Below are positions 10,659-43,207 of a DNA stretch of 64,000 bases, in pieces. Within the stretch, counting starts at the first letter, position 1; each line of letters begins with the position of its first letter. The position numbers and the translations under genes are program-made. Source of the stretch: an uncultured SAR86 cluster bacterium (GTDB lineage: Bacteria > Pseudomonadota > Gammaproteobacteria > Magnimaribacterales > D2472); assembly GCA_964275585.1 (NCBI GenBank), contig CAXYCJ010000006.1, positions 83,387-147,386 of the forward strand, given 5' to 3'. The notes under the pieces are model-generated. The model had not been told where the DNA came from. It saw only the letters and a program-made list of their open reading frames with translations, and ran no database searches.

Positions 10659-10901
10659 ATGAATATTTATGTTGGAAACCTCCCATGGAGTATTGATGAC
10701 TCAGGTCTTGAGCAAGTTTTTGCTGAACATGGAACTGTAACATCGGCTAGAGTTATCACGGATCGTCAAACTAACCGCTCACGCGGGTTTGGTTTTGTTG
10801 AAATGTCTGATGGCGGCGAAAATGCCATTCAAGCATTGAACGATGCTGAAGTTGACGGTAGAAAATTAGTTGTTAACGAGTCTCGTCCAAGAGACGAATA
10901 G
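10659..10901 (+). CDS. RRM-type RNA-binding protein (copy 1)
   Basis: 80 aa. RNP-2 IYVGNL and RNP-1 RGFGFVEM. Confidence 0.9.
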
Positions 10902-10912
10902 GAAGGATTTAT

Positions 10913-11152
10913 ATGAATATTTACGTAGGAAATCTCCCTTGGAGTATAGATAGCTCAGGTCTCGAGCAAGTTTTTGCTGAACACGGTACCGTAACCTCTG
11001 CTAAAGTTGTCACTGATCGTGAGACTAATCGCTCACGTGGGTTTGGTTTTGTTGAAATGTCTGATGGCGGAGAAAATGCCATTCAAGCATTGAACGATGC
11101 TGAAGTTGACGGTAGAAAATTAGTCGTTAACGAGTCTCGTCCTAGAGATTAA
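10913..11152 (+). CDS. RRM-type RNA-binding protein (copy 2, tandem paralog)
   Basis: 79 aa. Four aa substitutions relative to copy 1, with the same RNP motifs. Own Shine-Dalgarno (GGAAGGA). Confidence 0.9.
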   Translation: MNIYVGNLPWSIDSSGLEQVFAEHGTVTSAKVVTDRETNRSRGFGFVEMSDGGENAIQALNDAEVDGRKLVVNESRPRD

Positions 11153-11156
11153 TTTT

Positions 11157-11435
11157 ATGGGCTACCTTGGGTTAGTTGGATTATTTGGTCTAATTGGCTT
11201 AACAGGTCTGCTCAACAAAGTACATCCAGCTCAATCCGGAAGCTCAATAAGATTATTGGGCTTGCTGGGTTTGCTTGGTTTAGTAGCATTGTTGGTAGAT
11301 ATCCCACTTGGTGCCTGCGGTGCTTTTGGTGCTTTGGGAGTTTGGAACCATCAAAACACATCCATTGCCCGTTTAGCTCATTTCGGCTGGCTTGGGTTTA
11401 TTGGCCTCCTGCAGACAATTAGCTTTTATCTTTAG
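11157..11435 (+). CDS. Small glycine-zipper membrane protein (GLxGLxGL repeats, C-terminal WLGFIGLL)
   Basis: 92 aa. Starts 4 nt after the second RRM gene. Repeated G-L-x-G-L periodicity. Family assignment (WGxxGxxG-like) is tentative. Confidence 0.45.
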   Translation: MGYLGLVGLFGLIGLTGLLNKVHPAQSGSSIRLLGLLGLLGLVALLVDIPLGACGAFGALGVWNHQNTSIARLAHFGWLGFIGLLQTISFYL

Positions 11436-11799
11436 TAGCCAGGATTAGTAATCCTGCGGCAATTGCTAAATTCTTAACAAAATTTTGTATTTCATCTGGA
11501 TCTCCTGCGACTGACCAGAAGTCATGGATGTAGATATTTATTAAAATAGTCAGACCAAATAAAAGCAAAGAAGAAACCCTAAGGCTCTTACCAAGAACTA
11601 AAAATATTCCTCCTATAATCTGTACCGCTATAGTTATGGGCAGCAAGACAGAGCTAAATGGAACACCTTTTGAGATCATCAAGGTTAATGTTCCTGCAAA
11701 ATCGAATATCTTACTTGCCCCAGGAATAATAAAGTAGAGCCCAAGTAAAGTTCTTCCAACAGTAAAATACAAAGTATCAAATTTTTTTAAGGATTGCAT
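11419..11799 (-). CDS. DoxX family membrane protein
   Basis: 126 aa with four predicted transmembrane segments. N-terminal RTLLGLYFIIPGASKI is typical of DoxX. Confidence 0.65.
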   Translation of the reverse strand: MQSLKKFDTLYFTVGRTLLGLYFIIPGASKIFDFAGTLTLMISKGVPFSSVLLPITIAVQIIGGIFLVLGKSLRVSSLLLFGLTILINIYIHDFWSVAGDPDEIQNFVKNLAIAAGLLILATKDKS

Positions 11800-11868
11800 T
11801 TTTTGCCTATTATAAAGTGCGTTTGTAGATTAATATTATCCTCAAATAGTTTTTATACAATAGGAGAG

Positions 11869-12675
11869 ATGATGCAGAATTTAAATAGATTTTCTTTAAA
11901 ATTTCTAGCGTTGATATGTTTTGCTTGGAGTCCGCTTGGTTTTACAGATAGTGCATTAAAGATGGCAATTAATAACACTGATCGGAATCCAGCTTACACT
12001 GCTAGAGATCAATCTCGGCATCCTTATGAAACACTTTCATTTTTTAGGATTAATTCTTCAATGAATGTTTTAGAGCTTGCAGCTGGAGGAGGTTGGTACA
12101 CAGAAATTCTAGCTCCATACTTGCATGACTCTGGCAAGTTAACAGTCACTCATTACAATCCAGATGCAGGAGAGTATCAAAAGCGCTCTAGGGATAAATA
12201 TGACTCAAAGGTAGCATCTAATAAACTTTTTAGAGGGGTAAAGGTTATGACTGGAGATGTTCCTCCCAAGCAACCATATGCTGAGCCTGGCTCACATGAT
12301 TTAGTCTTAACTTTCAGAAACCTACATAATTGGTATGCACGTGATGCAATGAAAAATGTTATGGATGAAGCCTTTAATGCGCTTAAGACTGGAGGTTATT
12401 TTGGGGTCGTAGAGCATAGAGCACCTGAAGGTTCTAGCGTTGAATTTATGAAAACAAGTGGGTATGTTACCCAGTCTTTGGCTATTCAGGTTGCAGAAAG
12501 TGCTGGTTTTAAGCTAGTAGACACTTCTGAAATTAACGCTAATCCTCGAGACACAAAGGATTATCCAAAAGGGGTATGGACATTACCTCCATCATATCGG
12601 TTGAAAGACGAGAATAAATCTACGTATCAGACAATTGGTGAATCAGATAGGATGACTCTTTTGTTTAAGAAGTAA
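11869..12675 (+). CDS. Secreted class I SAM-dependent methyltransferase-fold protein
   Basis: The ATG at 11869 is preceded by AGGAGA, followed by a signal-peptide-like N-terminus. Motif I LELAAGGGWY. The upstream extension to 11794 in the ORF track is unlikely. Confidence 0.65.
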   Translation: MMQNLNRFSLKFLALICFAWSPLGFTDSALKMAINNTDRNPAYTARDQSRHPYETLSFFRINSSMNVLELAAGGGWYTEILAPYLHDSGKLTVTHYNPDAGEYQKRSRDKYDSKVASNKLFRGVKVMTGDVPPKQPYAEPGSHDLVLTFRNLHNWYARDAMKNVMDEAFNALKTGGYFGVVEHRAPEGSSVEFMKTSGYVTQSLAIQVAESAGFKLVDTSEINANPRDTKDYPKGVWTLPPSYRLKDENKSTYQTIGESDRMTLLFKK

Positions 12676-13324
12676 CTTTCTTTTGAGTCGTAAAAAATAA
12701 TACAACTCCTGACAAAGAACTTATAAGAGCAAGTACAGAAAAAATTTTCATTAATAGATTATTAATATTGTCTCTTTCTATGTAGTCCATTATATGGAGA
12801 CTCCACATGAAATCCCATATTCTCCAGCCAGAGGATCTTATGGCCACAATTTCTCCAGTCATACCATCTACGTAGGCATTAATATTTTTTTTATGATCTG
12901 TTATGACCTGAAAAAGGGGCAAATTTCTTCCTCTATATTCAGAGCCGCGAGGAGTTTCAAAGATTTCTTGTGCGGAAATAGAGTTAAGGGATGTTTTGGT
13001 ATCAACAATCTCCATTGCTTGAATTGAATCAATGGGCTGGACTGCCAAGCCGGCAGTATCTTTGTATATTATTCCTTCTTTTGTTTCAATTTTCAGCACC
13101 GGATGACCAAGCCTGATAAATGCTGTAATTGAAGTTGCTTCTAATTTAGGGACGTCTTGAAGATTAAAGACTATTTGTCCATCCTGTGAATTTCTGAGGT
13201 GCTCACCTCTAATCATTTCAATTTTATTGTAAGCAAAATAAATTCCAGAGATAGTCCACAGCAGCAATTGCAATGAGATAAAGAGACTCAAGTACTTATG
13301 GATTTTTCGAATTGTCAGCTTCAT
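12665..13324 (-). CDS. PepSY-type membrane protein
   Basis: 219 aa. N-terminal and C-terminal transmembrane helices flank a periplasmic domain. KIHKYLSLFISLQLLLWTISGIYF resembles a PepSY-associated TM helix. Its start overlaps the csoR-like stop by 4 nt. Confidence 0.55.
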   Translation of the reverse strand: MKLTIRKIHKYLSLFISLQLLLWTISGIYFAYNKIEMIRGEHLRNSQDGQIVFNLQDVPKLEATSITAFIRLGHPVLKIETKEGIIYKDTAGLAVQPIDSIQAMEIVDTKTSLNSISAQEIFETPRGSEYRGRNLPLFQVITDHKKNINAYVDGMTGEIVAIRSSGWRIWDFMWSLHIMDYIERDNINNLLMKIFSVLALISSLSGVVLFFTTQKKVTS

Positions 13325-13581
13325 CTTTTTAGCAATTTCATTATTTCCTCGACCTTACCATCAAATGATTCTTTCTCATTCAATGACTCTTTTAAGCATG
13401 CCTTAAGGTGCGATTTAAGAATACTCCCCTCAACTGTTATTACTGCATTTTTCACTGCTTTAATTTGATTAAGAATATCTATGCAATATTTACCTTCATT
13501 TATCATGGATTGAACGCCTCTTACCTGACCTTCAATTCTCTTCAGACTTGTAATTTGATCTTTATGATTATTATGTTTCAC
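13321..13581 (-). CDS. CsoR/RcnR/FrmR-family metal-sensing repressor (x-C-H-C fingerprint, CsoR-like)
   Basis: 86 aa all-helical protein. Cys in GKYCIDIL, then His and Cys in KSHLKAC spaced as in Cu(I)-sensing CsoR. Confidence 0.8.
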   Translation of the reverse strand: MKHNNHKDQITSLKRIEGQVRGVQSMINEGKYCIDILNQIKAVKNAVITVEGSILKSHLKACLKESLNEKESFDGKVEEIMKLLKR

Positions 13582-13584
13582 GGC

Positions 13585-13968
13585 TTACAGAAAATATGGA
13601 ACAACGTAAGTAAACATTGATGCAAATATAAAAATACCAGCAGAATAATAATATAAGATTCTTGATCTTTTTCTTGTCTGCATACACAAACGACCCAATT
13701 CAGGGTCAGCTGGGCAGGGCATGTAATAGGTTTTGTAATTTGCATACCCTGCGATAAAAAGCATCACTAAAGCAAAAAAAGTAATGTAAAGAGAGTATCG
13801 CGACAAGGTTATTAAAAATGGAAATGTACTTACCAGGCTTGCAAAACTTGCGCCAGCACCTAGAGCAACAAACATAGCTGGAAGGGCGCAACATACCAAT
13901 GTTGATGATGAGGCAAACAGCGCAAAAAGATTTGCTGTTTTCTCATTGATAACTTGCTCTGATTCCAT
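13585..13968 (-). CDS. MerT-like heavy-metal transport membrane protein
   Basis: 127 aa with 3 transmembrane helices. Vicinal Cys pair in TM1 (LVCCALPA) and a second Cys pair in the TM2-TM3 loop (CPADPELGRLC). This is the MerT arrangement. Confidence 0.55.
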   Translation of the reverse strand: MESEQVINEKTANLFALFASSSTLVCCALPAMFVALGAGASFASLVSTFPFLITLSRYSLYITFFALVMLFIAGYANYKTYYMPCPADPELGRLCMQTRKRSRILYYYSAGIFIFASMFTYVVPYFL

Positions 13969-13970
13969 GA

Positions 13971-14384
13971 CTACATTTTAATTATCTGAAGGTCAGTTGC
14001 ATTTTGACCATTTGAAAGAATCTTCTTTTTAATATCTTCAAAATTTATATTTTTGTCTGGGCTATAAGCAATTAAAACCTTTCCGCCACTCAAATCTACA
14101 TCAACTTTTAGAACTGTTTTATCTTTAATAAAGGTTTTCTCAATTCCTCTTGCGCAAAAATCGCAAACCATTCCACTGACACTGATAACAGCTACCTGTT
14201 TTCCTTTCAGGGTCGATACGAAGCGATCAAATCGCTCTGGATTAACCTTTAAAAGTTTACCATCTACCATCGTGTCGTGAAGATGACCTTCGTGATCATG
14301 GCCTTCCATATCATGCATAGCATGATCTTGAGAGACAGCAGAAATAGACAGCATCATCAGAAATAAATAATAAAAATGTTTCAT
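13971..14384 (-). CDS. Periplasmic heavy-metal-associated (HMA) domain protein with a His-rich N-terminus (MerP/CopZ-like)
   Basis: Signal peptide, His-rich stretch HAMHDMEGHDHEGHLHD, and HMA metal site GMVCDFC. Confidence 0.75.
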   Translation of the reverse strand: MKHFYYLFLMMLSISAVSQDHAMHDMEGHDHEGHLHDTMVDGKLLKVNPERFDRFVSTLKGKQVAVISVSGMVCDFCARGIEKTFIKDKTVLKVDVDLSGGKVLIAYSPDKNINFEDIKKKILSNGQNATDLQIIKM

Positions 14385-14393
14385 ATCTTCTCC

Positions 14394-15044
14394 TTAAAAC
14401 CTATACATTATGTGAATGTCCCATGTTGAGGTATCGCTATACCCAAACTCAACAAGAGCATTCCCCTTAAAAAATTTTAGAACTGGGTACGTATCCCAAT
14501 TACTCGTTAAATCATTCTTCTTAGATTTTAACATCAGCCAGGTGTGAAGATCGCCATATTCTCCAATGTATGGAGCCACACCAACTTGAAGGTATTGCTC
14601 TATATAATCCAATGTCTCCGCCATAGTTTTTTTGTAACCAAATCCTACGAATAATCGTCTAGTCTCCCAATCTCCATGTGCACCATAAAAATAATGATCA
14701 AGGCCATCGGATGATAAGCCAGATTGGAAGTAAAGGTTTCTCTGTGAGTTTTGCGTATTCCGTCGATTTAGTAAGTAGGTAAATCTTAGGTATGAGTAAT
14801 TCGAATTAAAATATTTATCTTTTATGTGCTGAATACCAAGTGAGTACTTGTATGTTGGTGAATAGTGGTAGTAAGCAGAATCTTGCATATTATTTGATAC
14901 CATCATAAATGTGGAGCCACCAGAGTAAGAGATAGGGCGCGCTTCGAGTTGTAAACAATTAAATAATAAGACTAAAGCAGTTAATTCTTTTATACCCATA
15001 GGGGGTATATTAACTCTTAAATTTTTTATGTCAATTAACCTCAT
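14394..15044 (-). CDS. Putative small outer-membrane beta-barrel protein
   Basis: 216 aa. Alternating aromatic/hydrophilic pattern, rich in Y and G, with C-terminal ..MYRF (terminal Phe). First gene of the metal operon. Confidence 0.45.
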   Translation of the reverse strand: MRLIDIKNLRVNIPPMGIKELTALVLLFNCLQLEARPISYSGGSTFMMVSNNMQDSAYYHYSPTYKYSLGIQHIKDKYFNSNYSYLRFTYLLNRRNTQNSQRNLYFQSGLSSDGLDHYFYGAHGDWETRRLFVGFGYKKTMAETLDYIEQYLQVGVAPYIGEYGDLHTWLMLKSKKNDLTSNWDTYPVLKFFKGNALVEFGYSDTSTWDIHIMYRF

Positions 15045-15112
15045 CTACATTGCTTAATTGTGTGCAATCATTACACTTAAATTTAAGTTAATTATTTATT
15101 GGAGACTTTTAA

Positions 15113-15805
15113 ATGAAATATTTATTTACACTGTGCGTTCTTGCTTTTAGCTTTAGCGCTTTCGCAGCGCATCATGAAGAGGGTGAAAACTCAGCTGATA
15201 TGCATTCAAATAGCTTTGTCTATATCTCAACTTATGTTCAGACTGTTGGCAAGAATCCAGAGGTCTTAAAGAAAAATCTTCTAAACAATATTAAGACGTT
15301 AGAAGAAAATGGCTATAACACTTGCGGTATGTTGAGACACCAATTTGGTGGCGAAAGATCCTTTATGACATATTGTTATTTTGATGACTGGGATCAGTTT
15401 GCAAAAATTAACGATAACAATGAACCTTTAGGTGGCAACCCTAGGCAATTATTTGGTGATCATACTGATAAATTAGCTGCAGTACTTGTCCGAAATCTCA
15501 AAAAACCAACGCCTTATGTATTGGAAGCAAAGTACTCTTTTGGTCCTTATCTTTCAAATAATCAAAGAAGAGCAAATGCACAGACACTTTTTGCTGCATA
15601 TGACACAGCTTTTGGTGGCTGCAACATGACAGAGCATATGTGGGGGCCTGAGCTAACATGGAATTTCTACTGTGGATATGACAGTTATGCAGATTGGGCC
15701 AATAAAGTTGAAGCGGTGTCTGCAATTCATGAAGCAGAGATTGCTGATCTGGACCTTGGTGTTTTAAATCACTCAGATCATCTGATGGTTAGAGTGGATA
15801 GATAA
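15113..15805 (+). CDS. Secreted hypothetical protein with an internal two-domain duplication
   Basis: Signal peptide (..SFSAFA/AHHEEG). Two ~100-aa halves share the pattern ..C(G/N)M..H..G.E.....YC.(F/Y)D....(F/W)A. Confidence 0.5.
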   Translation: MKYLFTLCVLAFSFSAFAAHHEEGENSADMHSNSFVYISTYVQTVGKNPEVLKKNLLNNIKTLEENGYNTCGMLRHQFGGERSFMTYCYFDDWDQFAKINDNNEPLGGNPRQLFGDHTDKLAAVLVRNLKKPTPYVLEAKYSFGPYLSNNQRRANAQTLFAAYDTAFGGCNMTEHMWGPELTWNFYCGYDSYADWANKVEAVSAIHEAEIADLDLGVLNHSDHLMVRVDR

Positions 15806-35549: not shown

Positions 35550-37349
35550 ATGACATTGCCGAATCATCAAACAGTTTGGTTGGCCCTCATTATTCCATTA
35601 TTAATTTCTTGTGGAGGGGGAGGTGGTGGCTCTGCCCTTGAAATTCCTGCAGTCACTCCATCCTTTAACATCTCAGCAGCAGCTGGTGTCAATGGATCTA
35701 TTTCTCCCTCAATGGTTTCGGTTGACCAGGGTCAGACTGCCACATTCACAGTAACGCCTGAGATAGGATATTCTGTGTTATCTGTATCCGGCTGCAATGG
35801 CACATTGAGCGAAAATACCTTTACTACCGGCACTATTGTAGCGGCATGTTCAGTAACAGCTCAATTTGCAAAGTATATGAGTACGGTGTTTGAAGCAGTG
35901 GCGTATGAATTTCCTTATCCAAGCAATACTTTGGATAACCTATGCATTGAAAATCCAACTTCTGTAGGGGCAGCCACATCCATTCTTTTACCTTTAGATC
36001 TAAATCTCGATACCTTCAACGACTTAATAGTAAGTTACTTTTGTAGTCCACAAATATCTGGGCAGTATCTAGATACCCCAACACCAGACGCAATAATCAC
36101 TTTTAAAAATAATGGCGATCAAACTTTTTCACTTGCTAACTCAGAAGTTTTCGGCGACGAAACTATTAAGCTTGGTGGCGCCACCCGAAAAGGTATTTTG
36201 GCTGACTTTAATGGTGATAATTATCCTGATATTTTGTATGCCTTGAACAGAGAGGATGGAAGAGGTCAGAGCTGTAAGAATTGTGGTGCATCGAATGAAG
36301 CGCCCCAAAAAATTATTCTATCTAATGGCGATGGTACTTATGCAGTTACTGAGCTAGGTTTTAGCGAATGGACTCATGCTGTTGATGCAGTGCATATGCC
36401 ATCTGGTAATTATGATGCAGTGATTTCTGGTTTTCGAAATAACACTGTGACTGGCTTCAGATATATAGATGGCTCTATGCAAGAAGTATCAGACTATGCA
36501 AATCCAGGCGGACCTGTTAACCGTTTTGGTGCAAGCACCCTGAGATTTTTTCCAGAACTTACGCCTGCAGCTGGAAGCATGCTTGCTGTTTCTGACAGTG
36601 GAGATTGTGGCATTCAAGTTAATCTAAGCAGTTTTTCAAAAGCCAGCGGTGCATGGAGCTTTGTCAACAAAACTGATTTTAATTGCCGCACTATCCCTAA
36701 TGCATATGAGGGATATACCAACGAAGTTGGAGATCTCCCTCTCATCACTATTGATGGACAAGATTATACGGGAGGAGGATTTGGTAACGAGGAATCATGC
36801 ATCCTTGAACTCACTCCAGGGGATGCTCCTGTGGCCGTGGTTCAATTCTCAGCGCAACCCATCGCAGGTAACTATGTTGAAGGCGTTGTATACAAGCAAG
36901 CAGATCTTCCAGTGCAAAATAGACTTAATGTTTTTGATGTCAGCGATACAGCGCTTGAGCTTAAAACAGGGGTGGTTGTAAATGAAAAAATTGATGCTTT
37001 ATACAGGATTGATGCTTGTAGAGACATAAACAATGATGGTTACGATGATGTGGTGCTGCTTCAAAATGCAGGCGGTGGCGGAGAGGCAACAAACACCAGA
37101 GCTGAACCAATTGTCTATTTAAACGACAAAGATAATCATCTAGTCAAACTTGATCTTGCTGGGATACCTCTGGTTGATAAAAGTGAAGACTACCTTGTCC
37201 ATGGGTTTTTAGCAGATATGAATGGAGATGGTATTGAAGATTTAGTTTATTTCAGAGCATCAAGAGGATACATCTCATCTGACACCCTTGATCCTAGTCA
37301 GGAAAACTTTATACGTGTTTATTGGGGAGCTAAAAACCTAAAGCTCTAG
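35550..37349 (+). CDS. Lipoprotein with an N-terminal Ig-like repeat and FG-GAP/VCBS-type calcium-binding repeats
   Basis: Lipobox LLISCGGGGGGS. Bacterial Ig-like repeat segment (GVNGSISPS..VDQGQTATFTVTPEIGY..). DFNGDNYPDIL, DINNDGYDDVV and DMNGDGIEDLV loops. Confidence 0.65.
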   Translation: MTLPNHQTVWLALIIPLLISCGGGGGGSALEIPAVTPSFNISAAAGVNGSISPSMVSVDQGQTATFTVTPEIGYSVLSVSGCNGTLSENTFTTGTIVAACSVTAQFAKYMSTVFEAVAYEFPYPSNTLDNLCIENPTSVGAATSILLPLDLNLDTFNDLIVSYFCSPQISGQYLDTPTPDAIITFKNNGDQTFSLANSEVFGDETIKLGGATRKGILADFNGDNYPDILYALNREDGRGQSCKNCGASNEAPQKIILSNGDGTYAVTELGFSEWTHAVDAVHMPSGNYDAVISGFRNNTVTGFRYIDGSMQEVSDYANPGGPVNRFGASTLRFFPELTPAAGSMLAVSDSGDCGIQVNLSSFSKASGAWSFVNKTDFNCRTIPNAYEGYTNEVGDLPLITIDGQDYTGGGFGNEESCILELTPGDAPVAVVQFSAQPIAGNYVEGVVYKQADLPVQNRLNVFDVSDTALELKTGVVVNEKIDALYRIDACRDINNDGYDDVVLLQNAGGGGEATNTRAEPIVYLNDKDNHLVKLDLAGIPLVDKSEDYLVHGFLADMNGDGIEDLVYFRASRGYISSDTLDPSQENFIRVYWGAKNLKL

Positions 37350-39276: not shown

Positions 39277-42174
39277 ATGAAGAATTTATTATTTACAACC
39301 ACTCTGCGGGCTTCTGTTTTGGCTTTTAGTCTGTTGCTTATTTCATATCCAGCGCTATCTCAAGAAGCTTCTTCAAATACTATTGAAGAGATAATTGTTA
39401 CATCTCAAAGAACCGAAGAAAGTCTTCAAGATGTGCCAATAGCGGTTACAGCTTTAACCTCAGACATGCTTGAAGATATGCAAATCGAAGGTGGGTCAGA
39501 TCTTCAGTTAGTTACTCCTAGTTTAAGTTTTCAAGGAAGTGATGCATCAGGAGGCTCATTTAATATTCGTGGTATTACCAATCTAGCAGTTTCTGCAACA
39601 TCTGAATCAGGGGTTGAGATTCATGTTAATGACATACCTGTTGGCGCAACAACTATGCAAGATGGTGAATTTTTAGACATGGAGCGTATTGAAGTCTTAA
39701 GAGGTCCACAAGGAACGCTTTATGGAAAAAATTCAGTGGGCGGAGTGATTAACTTGATCACAGCCAGACCTAAGTTTGGTGAAACTTTTGGAAAATTTTC
39801 TGTAGATATGGGCAGTTTTGATCTATTGAAATCTAAGGTTACTTTAAACATTCCCTTGGGTGACACTCTTGCTATGAGAGTTGCCATGGCCTCAATTGGA
39901 AGAGATGGGGACATTAAAAATATTTACTCTAAAGCCAAAACAAGCCATGTTAATGATAGACATTCAAACAATTTTAGAATTTCTTTAGCATGGGACGCAA
40001 ATGATCGAACAGATGTTTTGTTTGTTCATGAACGCTATAAAGAAGACTCAAACAGGCATTATGTTAATAATGTTTACTGTCAACGCGATCCGTCTTTTGT
40101 ATCTGGTTGTGTCCCTGGCGGAGCAAGAGTGCATGAGCTGACCCATCCTATGGCAACGTTTGTTGAAAATTTAGCTGTGTTAACTGGGATTCTAGATTTT
40201 ACTCCATTCACCGATATGTCCGGAGCTCCAAAAGGTTTTTGGGAGGCTAATATTAGAGGTAATCCTAAATATGTAGTTGATCAAGACATCACTCAGTTGA
40301 TAGTTAACCATGAATTGAATGATGATTGGAATTTAACTTTTTCAGCACAACAAAAAGATAGGCTCTATGACAGAACGGGTTCTTACGCATCCGAAGAGAT
40401 GGATAGATTAAGATTTAAAGATAATCCATATTTTCCTGGAGGGAATATTCCCATGAGTGGATATGGATCAAACTGTAATATTGAGGATGGAACCATGGGT
40501 GTCTATGGAGGTTGTATTACAGACACGATGAATTACCCAGATGGTTTTGACAGGAATGTTGCACAAGGAGAAAGCGAAGTTGTTGAGATAAGAATTCAAT
40601 CAAACCTTGATGGTAATTGGAATTATTTATTCGGTGCAATTCATGCTGAATCAAGTTCTAAAGTCGTCTATGATATCGCTGCAAATGGACTCGACGCTTT
40701 GGCTCTAGCTCCTCCTCCAGTTCTTACTGGCGGCGTCCCTCAAGGATATGTTCAGCTATATGCACCCTTGTATCAAACAAACACCAAAGCTGCTACAAGA
40801 AGCACAGCAATTTTTGGTGAGGTTTACTATCAAGCAAGCGATAGGCTTAAATACACAGTTGGTCTAAGGAACACTGAAGATTACAAAGAGCAATATGGCT
40901 TCTCACCTTTCTTGAGCGCACCAGGCTTCGGCAGCATAGGCGGTGGATTCACTGCTATGCCTGGGACAAGTCTGCCAACTTATGGTGATTCTTGGTATGC
41001 CTCAGGAACTCCAGGAGATCCAGAAACCGAATATAGCAATACGACAGGAAGGTTTGTGGTCGACTATGCTTTAAGTGACAACTCACTTGTTTATGGATCC
41101 ATATCAAAAGGATTTAAAGGAGGAGGGTTTAATCCACCTCTTGATCCAGCAAAATATCCTGATACGCCTCAAGTCTTCCCAGACACAGAGCTAATGGCTT
41201 ATGAGGTTGGCATCAAAATTGATTTTCCTGAAAGAGGTATGAGGTTAAATACTTCAGCTTATATGTACGATGCTTCAGATTATCAAGTCACCAAGATTCA
41301 GAATAAAACACGTGTCAACGAAGGTATTGATGTTGACATGATGGGTGTAGAGTCTGAATTTATCTGGGTTCCATTGAGTGCCCCCCAATGGCAAATTAAT
41401 GTTGGGTTAAGTTTTGAGGAGTCTGAAGTTGCAAGCGGTAACATGCTTCTTAATCCAGCCAATGCTGATCTGTGTTTAACCACAGGATGTGGTAATTGGC
41501 ATCTAATGAAAGATGGTTCGGATGGAGAAGTTTTTGTGGTGCGAAAGGATATTGCAACAGCTATTTTGCAAACATGGCAGGCTGGTGCATTTGGGCCTTT
41601 GCAAAATGGTATTCTACTTCCAGCTGAATTCCATGGTGATAGGGCCTCTGGAGTTCCAACTCCTGTGAGTTATCTTCAAACTGGTTTAACGCCAGGGCAC
41701 TTACCTTCACTCACTGCCTCAAGAACTTACTATGAATACATGGCAGGAGCTATGTGTGCAGCCTTTGGCTGCGCTGTTAGCGATGTTGTTAAAGATGGTT
41801 TGCTTTCAGATATTAGTGGCAATTCTCTAACTCATCCAGAATTTATGGCTAATGTTGGAGTGCAATACACCATGTCAACTGAGAGCTATAAGGTAAACTT
41901 TAGGTTGGATGCTTATCACCAAGGTGAGAGATACACTTCATTGTTTAATTTAGATTGGGACAAAGTTGATCCATGGACTGAATACAATGCAATGATCTCC
42001 ATTACTCCGACTCGAGAGGATGCGAATTGGCGTGTTGATATTTACGGTCAAAATATTACTGATGAAGAAAATGTTATGAATATAGGAGATGCTACTGCGC
42101 CTCTTGGTTTTAATAAAAGTATATGGGCAAGACCTCAGGCTACCTATGGAATTAAGTGGACTCTTAACTTCTAG
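39277..42174 (+). CDS. TonB-dependent outer-membrane receptor
   Basis: ATG at 39277 behind AGGAGG. Signal peptide, plug (IEEIIVTSQRTEESLQDVPIAVTAL), C-terminal ..YGIKWTLNF. Confidence 0.9.
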   Translation: MKNLLFTTTLRASVLAFSLLLISYPALSQEASSNTIEEIIVTSQRTEESLQDVPIAVTALTSDMLEDMQIEGGSDLQLVTPSLSFQGSDASGGSFNIRGITNLAVSATSESGVEIHVNDIPVGATTMQDGEFLDMERIEVLRGPQGTLYGKNSVGGVINLITARPKFGETFGKFSVDMGSFDLLKSKVTLNIPLGDTLAMRVAMASIGRDGDIKNIYSKAKTSHVNDRHSNNFRISLAWDANDRTDVLFVHERYKEDSNRHYVNNVYCQRDPSFVSGCVPGGARVHELTHPMATFVENLAVLTGILDFTPFTDMSGAPKGFWEANIRGNPKYVVDQDITQLIVNHELNDDWNLTFSAQQKDRLYDRTGSYASEEMDRLRFKDNPYFPGGNIPMSGYGSNCNIEDGTMGVYGGCITDTMNYPDGFDRNVAQGESEVVEIRIQSNLDGNWNYLFGAIHAESSSKVVYDIAANGLDALALAPPPVLTGGVPQGYVQLYAPLYQTNTKAATRSTAIFGEVYYQASDRLKYTVGLRNTEDYKEQYGFSPFLSAPGFGSIGGGFTAMPGTSLPTYGDSWYASGTPGDPETEYSNTTGRFVVDYALSDNSLVYGSISKGFKGGGFNPPLDPAKYPDTPQVFPDTELMAYEVGIKIDFPERGMRLNTSAYMYDASDYQVTKIQNKTRVNEGIDVDMMGVESEFIWVPLSAPQWQINVGLSFEESEVASGNMLLNPANADLCLTTGCGNWHLMKDGSDGEVFVVRKDIATAILQTWQAGAFGPLQNGILLPAEFHGDRASGVPTPVSYLQTGLTPGHLPSLTASRTYYEYMAGAMCAAFGCAVSDVVKDGLLSDISGNSLTHPEFMANVGVQYTMSTESYKVNFRLDAYHQGERYTSLFNLDWDKVDPWTEYNAMISITPTREDANWRVDIYGQNITDEENVMNIGDATAPLGFNKSIWARPQATYGIKWTLNF

Positions 42175-42196: not shown

Positions 42197-42222
42197 GACC
42201 TCGCATTTGCGGGGTCTTTTTT
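42197..42222. terminator. Hairpin terminator between convergent genes
   Basis: GACCTCGC-ATTT-GCGGGGTC followed by T6. Lies between the TBDR stop and the esterase stop. Confidence 0.6.
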
Positions 42223-43207
42223 ATTGTATGACACCATTAATGTCATACTTTGAAAAGAAGTCCCAAACTTTTTGACTGGCATCGGGGTCCTTGATGCTCA
42301 CGAAGATAGATCCCGGCCAAATATGATCAGCGCCTTGAACATAAAGATGAATATTTTGAGTGCCGTTTAGACAATTATCATATAAATATGTCTCAGTCCA
42401 AGATGTTGTTCCTGGAGTAATTCCAGGTGTTGCAAGCAAGTAGTCATCGCAGCCATTGTTCCCTTTCCAATACTCCATAACCTCCATAATTGATTTCATG
42501 TTTCTTGTATCTGATCCCTTGTGGGGAACGGTGGCATCAAGCGAGCCATGTATCTGCAAAACTGGAGTAGGCTTTCTAGGGTTGCAGTTATCAAATGTGC
42601 TGTATGTCATCGAGCCAGTTACAGATGCAACTGCGGCAAAGCTCGCACTTAAATTGCATGCTAGATGAAAACTAAAAAAACCGCCATTTGACATTCCAGT
42701 TGAGTAAATTCTCTCTGCATTGATGGAGTATTTATCCATTAATAAATTAATAAGATTTTCAGTAAATTTGACATCATCATGCACGCTTTCTGACCAGCCT
42801 TTAATATTCCAATAACTGGTTCCAAAAATATCATCAAGGGCCTCAGGATGCACCAGAATAAATCCATTGGCATCAGCTTGAGAGCGCAGATCTCCATATG
42901 CCATTTGCTGGCTGGCATTACTGCCATAACCATGAAAATTAAATACCAAAGGTTGTTTTGATGAACTGTTATAGCTTGATGGGACATAAAGAATAAACGT
43001 ACGATCAATGTCTTCGTAGCTTATGGTTCCATTTATCGTGCCCTGTGCTTGAGATTTAAGATTACTTGATACGGCTGGCATTGGCGGAGTGACTGGAGCG
43101 GTTGGAGTTGGCTGAATCGATGGGCCGCTGCCTCCGCCTCCACCACCACAAGAAATGAGAAGTTGAGCAGCAAGTAAAGTTACAAATAAATGGGATACTT
43201 TCATCAT
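42221..43207 (-). CDS. Lipoprotein esterase of the PHB-depolymerase/feruloyl-esterase (LpqC-like) family
   Basis: Lipobox LLISCGGGGGGSG. FNFHGYG oxyanion region, nucleophile GMSNGG, HGSLD. Confidence 0.7.
   Translation of the reverse strand: MMKVSHLFVTLLAAQLLISCGGGGGGSGPSIQPTPTAPVTPPMPAVSSNLKSQAQGTINGTISYEDIDRTFILYVPSSYNSSSKQPLVFNFHGYGSNASQQMAYGDLRSQADANGFILVHPEALDDIFGTSYWNIKGWSESVHDDVKFTENLINLLMDKYSINAERIYSTGMSNGGFFSFHLACNLSASFAAVASVTGSMTYSTFDNCNPRKPTPVLQIHGSLDATVPHKGSDTRNMKSIMEVMEYWKGNNGCDDYLLATPGITPGTTSWTETYLYDNCLNGTQNIHLYVQGADHIWPGSIFVSIKDPDASQKVWDFFSKYDINGVIQ

Follow-up and report, generated by a model that had tools for sequence, protein, structure and literature searches.

A five-gene operon and its conserved core

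The DNA analysed here, a stretch of 64,000 nucleotides (nt) from an uncultured SAR86 cluster bacterium (the window), carries on its minus strand five tightly packed genes that code, from 5' to 3', for a predicted outer-membrane beta-barrel protein, an exported HMA-domain protein, a small inner-membrane protein resembling the mercury transporter MerT, a CsoR-type repressor and a PepSY_TM membrane protein (Table 1). A preliminary description of this DNA had listed the five genes and their spacing, and all of the open reading frames (ORFs) are present as described, with gaps of 9, 2 and 3 nt at the first three junctions and a 4-nt ATGA overlap at the last. The motifs it had named can all be read in the sequence as well: the YRF end of the barrel, GMVCDFC in the HMA protein, CC together with CPx8C in the MerT-like protein, and C..H-x3-C in the repressor. 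A promoter scan of positions 12500-15300 gave no convincing internal promoter or terminator inside the five-gene run, and we propose that the genes form a single operon, read as one transcript. Neither merA nor merR lies near this operon and no P-type ATPase is encoded anywhere in the 64-kb window, which bears out, within the window, the earlier statement that the two mercury genes are missing.

Table 1. Genes and control elements of the operon, with positions in the window
Feature	Positions	Strand	Details
Barrel gene	14394-15044 as listed, revised 14394-14999	minus	216 amino acids (aa) listed, 201 aa revised
HMA gene	13971-14384	minus	137 aa
MerT-like gene	13585-13968	minus	127 aa
csoR	13321-13581	minus	86 aa, GTG start
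PepSY_TM gene	12665-13324	minus	219 aa
CsoR operator TATACCCCCTATGGGTATA	14991-15009	minus	TAC-X9-GTA form, encloses barrel ATG
-35 hexamer TTGACA	15029-15034	minus	operon promoter
-10 hexamer TAATAT	15007-15012	minus	overlaps left arm of CsoR box

Searched against family profiles, the HMA, CsoR and PepSY_TM proteins score above their Pfam cut-offs, the MerT-like protein falls below its own, and the barrel protein has no match in Pfam or NCBIfam. The last of these, with a signal-like N-terminal segment and the C-terminal YRF both read from its sequence, is classed as a new protein family, one without an existing model in either database. Its AlphaFold2 model has 12 strands at a predicted local distance difference test score (pLDDT) of 75, and the best Foldseek matches in the PDB are likewise 12-stranded, namely a designed barrel, FapF, KdgM and NanC, at TM-scores of ~0.5 and E values of ~1e-3. 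An outer-membrane beta-barrel of ~12 strands is thus predicted, in which the residues conserved across 72 homologues include M32, R79, N81, Q86, N88, D110, E112, W154, M156 and the terminal F.

The HMA protein (36.8 bits against PF00403, cut-off 24.8) reaches none of the NCBIfam cut-offs for MerP or CopZ (16.3 bits against 92.55 for MerP, TIGR02052, and 38.3 against 91 for CopZ, NF033795), and is for this reason placed in a distinct subfamily. Its ATG is preceded by an AAGGAG Shine-Dalgarno sequence, and the protein runs from a signal-like N-terminus through DHAMHDMEGHDHEGHLHDTM to GMVCDFCA, the motif of the family being G[LM]VC[DAGS]FCA. A His-rich N-terminus is found in 45 of 105 HMA homologues, and the window copy is rich in both His and Met; a His/Met-rich tail on an exported HMA protein is a typical feature of periplasmic copper binders.

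The MerT-like protein scores 21.2 bits against PF02411 over positions 15-115 of 116 (cut-off 32.9) and 21.7 bits against NCBIfam NF010314 (cut-off 150). Alignment by hhalign of a profile of 73 relatives with a manually entered Tn501 MerT sequence returned a probability of 94% and an E value of 1.3e-7, with all four cysteines aligned. One pair, C26-C27, is located in transmembrane helix 1 (TM1) and the other, C85-P-x8-C95, in the TM2-TM3 loop, where the spacing is Cx9C as opposed to the Cx5C of MerT. The AlphaFold2 model (pLDDT 82) consists of long helices at 4-35, 59-82 and 89-126 and a short periplasmic helical hairpin, and no relative of solved structure came up by sequence or fold search. 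All 73 sequences, which had been pre-selected for the cysteine motifs, have C26, C27, P30, C85 and C95. The protein thus has the three transmembrane helices, the CCxxP in helix 1 and the loop cysteine pair by which MerT is recognised; a genomic tie to merA or merR is missing, neither gene occurring in the window or in those related loci that were inspected. Judged on these features it is a remote MerT relative outside Pfam family membership, and of its earlier description as MerT-like the cysteine layout and the three transmembrane helices stand, with remote homology taking the place of membership in the Pfam family.

The repressor scores 94.3 bits against PF02583 (cut-off 22.8), its best NCBIfam match being RicR at 68 bits, below the cut-off of that model. 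It carries Y32-C33...H58-x3-C62...E78, and the Y-C, H and C ligand columns are kept in all 33 aligned CsoR sequences, comprising that of the window and 32 from the loci considered below. Most SAR86 CsoR orthologues (L005-L022) begin MKHPCHK and so have an extra Cys-His pair, the window copy reading MKHNNHK, with no Cys; this pair could provide an additional metal ligand or a redox site. The PepSY_TM protein (35.5 bits against PF03929, cut-off 28.8) has hydrophobic segments at 12-31 and 189-214 and a conserved H10 plus the His in WSLHIMD, and with its two helices it is shorter than the four-helix reductases; by analogy with the family member FoxB it may be a haem-dependent reductase. Its gene is probably translationally coupled to csoR through the ATGA overlap. 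At the other end it overlaps by 11 nt (12665-12675) with the 3' end of a convergent methyltransferase gene (11794-12675, plus strand), and no terminator-like site was found between these two genes.

We then compared related loci. A genome scan supplied 22 SAR86-type loci, two complete genomes among them, and by tblastn the barrel, HMA, MerT-like and csoR genes follow one another in this order in every locus covering them, all four being present in 20 of the 22 and csoR standing directly 3' of the MerT-like gene in all 22. The PepSY_TM gene, always right behind csoR where it occurs, is found in only nine of these loci, and the SAR86 unit is therefore one of four genes. Since it is also absent from other lineages, PepSY_TM is an accessory, and its candidacy as a core component was ruled out. 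Of the five-gene unit first put forward, it is accordingly the barrel, HMA and MerT-like core that is conserved, and PepSY_TM has to be dropped as a conserved part.

Close relatives of the MerT-like protein number more than 1,200, and hardly any of them has been named. A whole-library profile search retrieved 612 representatives at the 50% identity level (E <= 1e-3), and a second search retrieved at least 6,796 clusters at the 90% level; the 120 clusters listed all lack a Pfam annotation. For a metagenome sample, 80 loci obtained with a narrower alignment as query were added to the earlier loci, and in 71 of the resulting set the DNA extends 1.3 kb or more upstream of the MerT-like gene. These 71 diverse loci span Alpha-, Beta- and Gammaproteobacteria. 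The barrel gene is present in 68 of them, the HMA gene in 64 and both in 61, nearly always in the same order. An alphaproteobacterium, a Casimicrobiaceae metagenome-assembled genome and an unassigned contig likewise have a barrel homologue (~35% identity, E 1e-32) followed by the HMA and MerT-like genes. The conserved unit is thus barrel-HMA-MerT-like (hereafter the module), and the core of the cluster delineated in the preliminary description recurs elsewhere, in 61 to 68 of the 71 loci depending on the genes counted. A copA gene adjoins the module in only two of 109 loci. Plasmids hardly ever carry the module: a look for copies in annotated metal-resistance islands on plasmids gave only four partial Variovorax matches, all annotated 'hypothetical', which is also the label used by RefSeq for the module.

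A divergent variant of Alteromonadales/Enterobacterales type occurs in two loci (L023 904-4268 and L024 227-2797). It consists of a Phenol_MetA_deg barrel, one to three exported HMA proteins and a MerT-like protein, and has in addition a thioredoxin-fold CxxC protein encoded directly 3' of the MerT-like gene and a MerR-type regulator. The ZntR and CueR scores of these regulators are about equal and lie below both cut-offs. Kinship of the SAR86 barrel with the Phenol_MetA_deg barrels of such clusters was considered and rejected, BLAST having found no similarity.

Operator, promoter and attached copper sensors

Within positions 12500-15300 the best sigma-70-type match is TTGACA-16 nt-TAATAT, with agreement at 10 of 12 positions, and this promoter is overlaid by the sequence TATACCCCCTATGGGTATA, which fits both the published CsoR consensus ATATACCCCTNAGGGGTATAT and its general form TAC-X9-GTA (PMC3902906). 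The TACCC-N5-GGGTA core of this operator occurs a single time in the window against 0.03 expected, and the operator occupies this position in each of the 19 SAR86 loci with upstream DNA. TTGACA with the 16-nt spacing is seen also in L002 and L004, and TAATAT or TATTAT lies directly 5' of the CsoR box across the SAR86 loci. Going by such signatures, the Y-C-H-C-E pattern of the repressor and its G-tract TAC-X9-GTA operator are those of the Cu(I)-CsoR type. Family score, ligand residues and operator therefore agree with the Cu(I)-type C-H-C fingerprint noticed before, and the earlier claim that CsoR governs the operon is backed by the presence of a canonical operator at the promoter of each SAR86 locus with upstream DNA.

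How the operator is placed relative to the coding sequence depends on the start of the barrel gene. The 216-aa version starting at 15044 was dropped for the ATG at 14999, in the centre of the box, because the conserved N-terminus (MGI, a hydrophobic core, then (E/D)ARPISYSGG) opens there and because database gene calls for the barrel family are mostly 198-201 aa; all barrel orthologues begin MGI... at the ATG within the box. With the start at 14999, the operator therefore covers the -10 hexamer, the probable transcription start and the first codons. Since the A of the start codon sits 8 nt past the -10 hexamer, a leaderless or near-leaderless barrel mRNA is possible.

The preliminary description had drawn attention to a perfect 14-bp palindrome, ACTTAAATTTAAGT at 15075-15088, and had selected 15045-15112 as the fragment on which to look for regulator binding. 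The palindrome is indeed present, and the fragment excludes the operator identified here. A significance of the palindrome for regulation did not hold up: a first-order Markov model predicts 6.6 perfect palindromes of 14 bp for the window, where nine occur, and the only locus in which this one turns up again, in imperfect form, is that of the closest relative, L004. Being AT-only, at chance level and unconserved, it was ruled out as the CsoR operator. It is situated 25 nt ahead of the start codon of a divergent plus-strand gene (15113-15805) and may belong to the promoter or 5' end of that gene, which codes for a 230-aa exported protein with the N-terminus AAHHEEGENSADMHS and no Pfam or NCBIfam family. 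Among the relatives, only the closest (L001, L003 and L004) have this divergent gene next to the operon.

Depending on lineage, the barrel-HMA-MerT-like core is combined with one of three sensing devices, these being CsoR, CueR and CutF/CruR-like leader ORFs. CsoR is found in 32 loci in total; SAR86 and a few others have it downstream of the module, and elsewhere it lies upstream, with a TAC-X9-GTA box of its own in L057, L068, L071 and L072. Divergent CueR genes characterise loci whose proteins carry the source names Pelagibacterales or Alphaproteobacteria in a cluster look-up, and one module-linked regulator reaches the CueR equivalog cut-off (TIGR02044, 147.6 against 147.4 bits). The intergenic regions between cueR and the barrel gene in L034, L035, L044, L048 and L076 contain TTGAC(A/C)-TTAACGTTAGGGTATAC- with a 19-bp spacer, and in Pelagibacterales-type loci this MerR-type promoter has the dyad ACCTTAA/TTAGGGT. 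L108 adjoins copA and a cueR-like gene.

The third device, a CutF/CruR-like leader ORF, heads the module in 23 non-SAR86 loci (L026, L029-L031, L042, L074, L078, L104 and others). These ORFs have a hydrophobic, signal-peptide-like segment at the N-terminus and an [RK]PP motif 2-6 residues from the C-terminus, the latter preceded at a distance of 35-45 residues by a Cys motif, and this is the same architecture as that published for the CruR and CutF leaders (PMC9426467, PMC9973294). Of five small ORFs tried against DUF2946, only one gave a match, and a weak one (E 0.036). In the window, the barrel start and the divergent gene are only ~113 bp apart, and no leader ORF lies there. Cys-rich ORFs ending ...LALLCTFLI, which may represent a second leader type, take the place of a labelled leader in L056, L066, L075, L095 and L109.

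The convergence of three copper-sensing devices on one module is the strongest evidence for copper as its substrate. Because the three sensors are unrelated, the assignment is unusually strong for an uncharacterised system, and we regard copper as very probably the metal handled. The earlier suggestion of a thiophilic metal, probably copper, thus receives independent backing from the CueR or CutF/CruR-like sensors on the relatives.

Proposed direction of copper movement

Our somewhat preferred reading of the locus is that of a Cu(I)-inducible operon that would move copper across the envelope with a net outward direction. Apo-CsoR on the TAC-X9-GTA box would repress the operon by covering its -10 hexamer together with the likely site of transcription initiation and the beginning of the barrel coding sequence. 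Rising cytoplasmic Cu(I) would then bind to C33, H58 and C62 and cause CsoR to leave the DNA, and derepression would yield one transcript for the barrel, the HMA protein, the MerT-like protein, CsoR itself (autoregulation) and, in this strain, PepSY_TM. The proteins would provide a relay chain of C85/C95 facing the cytoplasm, C26/C27 in the membrane, the CxxC of the HMA protein in the periplasm and finally the 12-stranded outer-membrane channel, with the His/Met tail of the HMA protein assisting the periplasmic CxxC step. Copper would pass from site to site by ligand exchange, as Hg(II) does from MerP to MerT, and the net route would lead from the cytoplasm through the periplasm to the outside. 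What points outward is induction by CsoR or CueR at excess cytoplasmic Cu(I), combined with the lack of a MerA-like sink, as negative feedback needs outward movement or exclusion, and the module would have to lower copper in the cytoplasm or the periplasm for the loop to be stable; exit would also be favoured over entry because the operon has a dedicated outer-membrane channel. Taken by itself the outward direction is held tentatively, and we stop a little short of calling it probable. The idea of an envelope-spanning system of mer-type parts under a non-mer regulator, put forward in the preliminary description, is upheld.

A number of points weigh against this reading. MerT works as an importer, and a membrane potential that is negative inside favours the entry of cations over their exit. 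No energy coupling is evident for the small three-helix MerT-like protein; it scores below the cut-off of PF02411, a model that no more than 14 of the 73 family members match at E <= 0.01. Confidence in the barrel model is moderate, with the other four models scoring 36-63. Hexamer spacing is the sole basis for the idea of a leaderless transcript, and substrate, induction and direction have all been deduced from sequence. Finally, leaders of the CutF/CruR type can switch genes on as well as off with copper (PMC9426467, PMC9973294).

Several of these points would fit movement in the opposite direction, in which the barrel would admit copper, the HMA protein would capture periplasmic Cu(I) and the MerT-like protein would pass it to the cytoplasm, so as either to relieve the periplasm, as the more vulnerable compartment, or to supply copper to buffering in the cytoplasm. 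The copper-induced CopC/CopD of Pseudomonas syringae are a precedent for such stress-induced import. It would accord with the homology to an importer with four cysteines aligned, with the membrane potential and with the lack of an energy-coupling domain in the operon, and the PepSY_TM family includes a metal reductase and could thus supply Cu(I) to a thiol route. However, induction by CsoR or CueR at excess cytoplasmic Cu(I) would turn import into positive feedback with no sink in the operon, a dedicated outer-membrane entry channel makes little sense in a stress-induced operon, and PepSY_TM is missing from most SAR86 loci and from other lineages. Import is, on balance, unlikely in our view.

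The cysteine pairs of the MerT-like protein might also carry electrons in place of metal, from cytoplasmic thioredoxin to the periplasm as in CcdA/DsbD, and would then maintain the exported HMA protein with its CxxC in the reduced state needed for Cu(I) sequestration and hand-over to the barrel. Cysteine pairs on opposite membrane faces follow the logic of DsbD and CcdA, and the Alteromonadales-type variants, with their thioredoxin-fold CxxC protein after the MerT-like gene and their extra exported HMA proteins, are in line with such a redox relay. But a thioredoxin-like gene is missing from the module in SAR86 and in most other loci, and the homology that can be detected is to MerT, none of the solved chains of CcdA or DsbD type having been matched, which makes electron transfer improbable. 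That the true substrate is another soft metal, Ag(I), Hg(II), Cd(II) or Ni(II), with copper-type regulators that cross-react or are mis-assigned, we consider highly improbable: the homology to a mercury transporter, the L023/L024 regulators that fit ZntR as well as CueR, the His3 and His6 near the N-terminus of the window CsoR and the view that some CutF-like leaders are not copper-specific would speak for it, but against these stand the Cu(I)-CsoR pattern with its operator, the linked regulator that passes the CueR cut-off, the resemblance of the leader-ORF Cys motifs to those of copper-type CutF and CruR, and the failure to find merA and merR in the window.

An exporter reading can be taken one step further. 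The barrel, HMA and MerT-like trio could act as an ATP-independent Cu(I) thiol-relay exporter across both membranes and as the main copper defence of ocean bacteria with streamlined genomes (SAR86 and Pelagibacterales/SAR11), which would then do without the CopA pump found almost universally elsewhere, a proposal that we consider speculative and rather doubtful. SAR11 has been reported without copA, yet 54% of its genomes carry 'copZ' (Hogle et al., PMC4771312). The Pelagibacterales loci suggest that this SAR11 'copZ' may in fact be the gene for the exported HMA protein, and a CopA-replacing exporter, if true, would explain the occurrence of 'copZ without copA' in SAR11.

Relation to known systems and neighbouring genes

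A close parallel in protein design is MerP-MerT, which likewise pairs an exported CxxC HMA protein with a small three-helix protein having CCxxP in helix 1 and a loop cysteine pair. Unlike MerP-MerT, the SAR86 operon adds an outer-membrane barrel, is under copper-sensor control and has no MerA or MerR; its likely substrate is Cu(I) and the direction of transport may be reversed. With CsoR-copZA of the Gram-positive Bacillus, Streptomyces and Mycobacterium it has in common a C-H-C CsoR, a G-tract operator over the promoter, an HMA chaperone and autoregulation, whereas its membrane part is MerT-like and not a P1B ATPase, its HMA protein is exported and not cytoplasmic, and it comprises an outer-membrane protein, resides in a gammaproteobacterial host and has its first start codon inside the operator. 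CusCFBA offers a likeness by analogy only, in that an outer-membrane part, a periplasmic metallochaperone and an inner-membrane part are induced by copper stress; the SAR86 ligands are thiols, not methionines, there is no evident proton-motive pump, and the Pfam/NCBIfam scans gave no match of the five proteins to RND, membrane-fusion, TolC-type or CusF families. CopC/CopD (PcoC/PcoD) also combine a periplasmic copper-binding protein with a small inner-membrane protein in a copper-induced operon, but belong to unrelated protein families and have no dedicated outer-membrane barrel. From the CutF/CruR (DUF2946) systems the window operon differs in using CsoR in place of a leader ORF, and the published context surveys of CruR and CutF do not mention HMA or MerT-like neighbours (PMC9426467, PMC9973294).

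Searches of the literature on MerT, CsoR, CueR, copper, SAR86 and Pelagibacter yielded no published description of a barrel-HMA-MerT-like module, in agreement with the earlier statement that the arrangement is not a described system. The module borrows the design of MerP-MerT, the regulation of CsoR-copZA and a Cus-like layout and is a member of none of these. Copper toxicity and limitation shape ocean microbial communities, and copper sensing and disposal by the most abundant streamlined heterotrophs are poorly known; the family is large, and sources that give it a name almost always say 'hypothetical'. Should the module prove to be a Cu(I) exporter, it would constitute a new two-membrane copper route without a P-type ATPase or RND pump, and should it prove to be a Cu(I) importer, a copper counterpart to mercury uptake with a dedicated outer-membrane gate.

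Some further genes of the window deserve brief mention. A neighbouring TonB-dependent receptor was considered as an OprC-type copper receptor and ruled out, as it belongs to the TonB-Xanth-Caul subfamily. Two near-identical small RRM-type RNA-binding genes (10659-10901 and 10913-11152, plus strand; 80 and 79 aa, 11 nt apart) both encode RGFGFVEM and look like a recent tandem duplication. They are followed by a 92-aa ORF made up largely of G-L repeats (11157-11435, plus strand; MGYLGLVGLFGLIGLTGLL...), which is adjoined by a minus-strand gene (11419-11799) for a DoxX-family membrane protein with a weak match (24.7 bits, cut-off 80) to HvfX, a protein of the maturation of copper-binding ribosomally synthesised and post-translationally modified peptides. 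Further along, lipoprotein-like N-termini followed by a poly-glycine run (SCGGGGGGS) are encoded at 35550-37349 (plus strand) and 42221-43207 (minus strand), and between these two genes lies one for a 965-aa protein with a signal-peptide-like N-terminus (39277-42174, plus strand).

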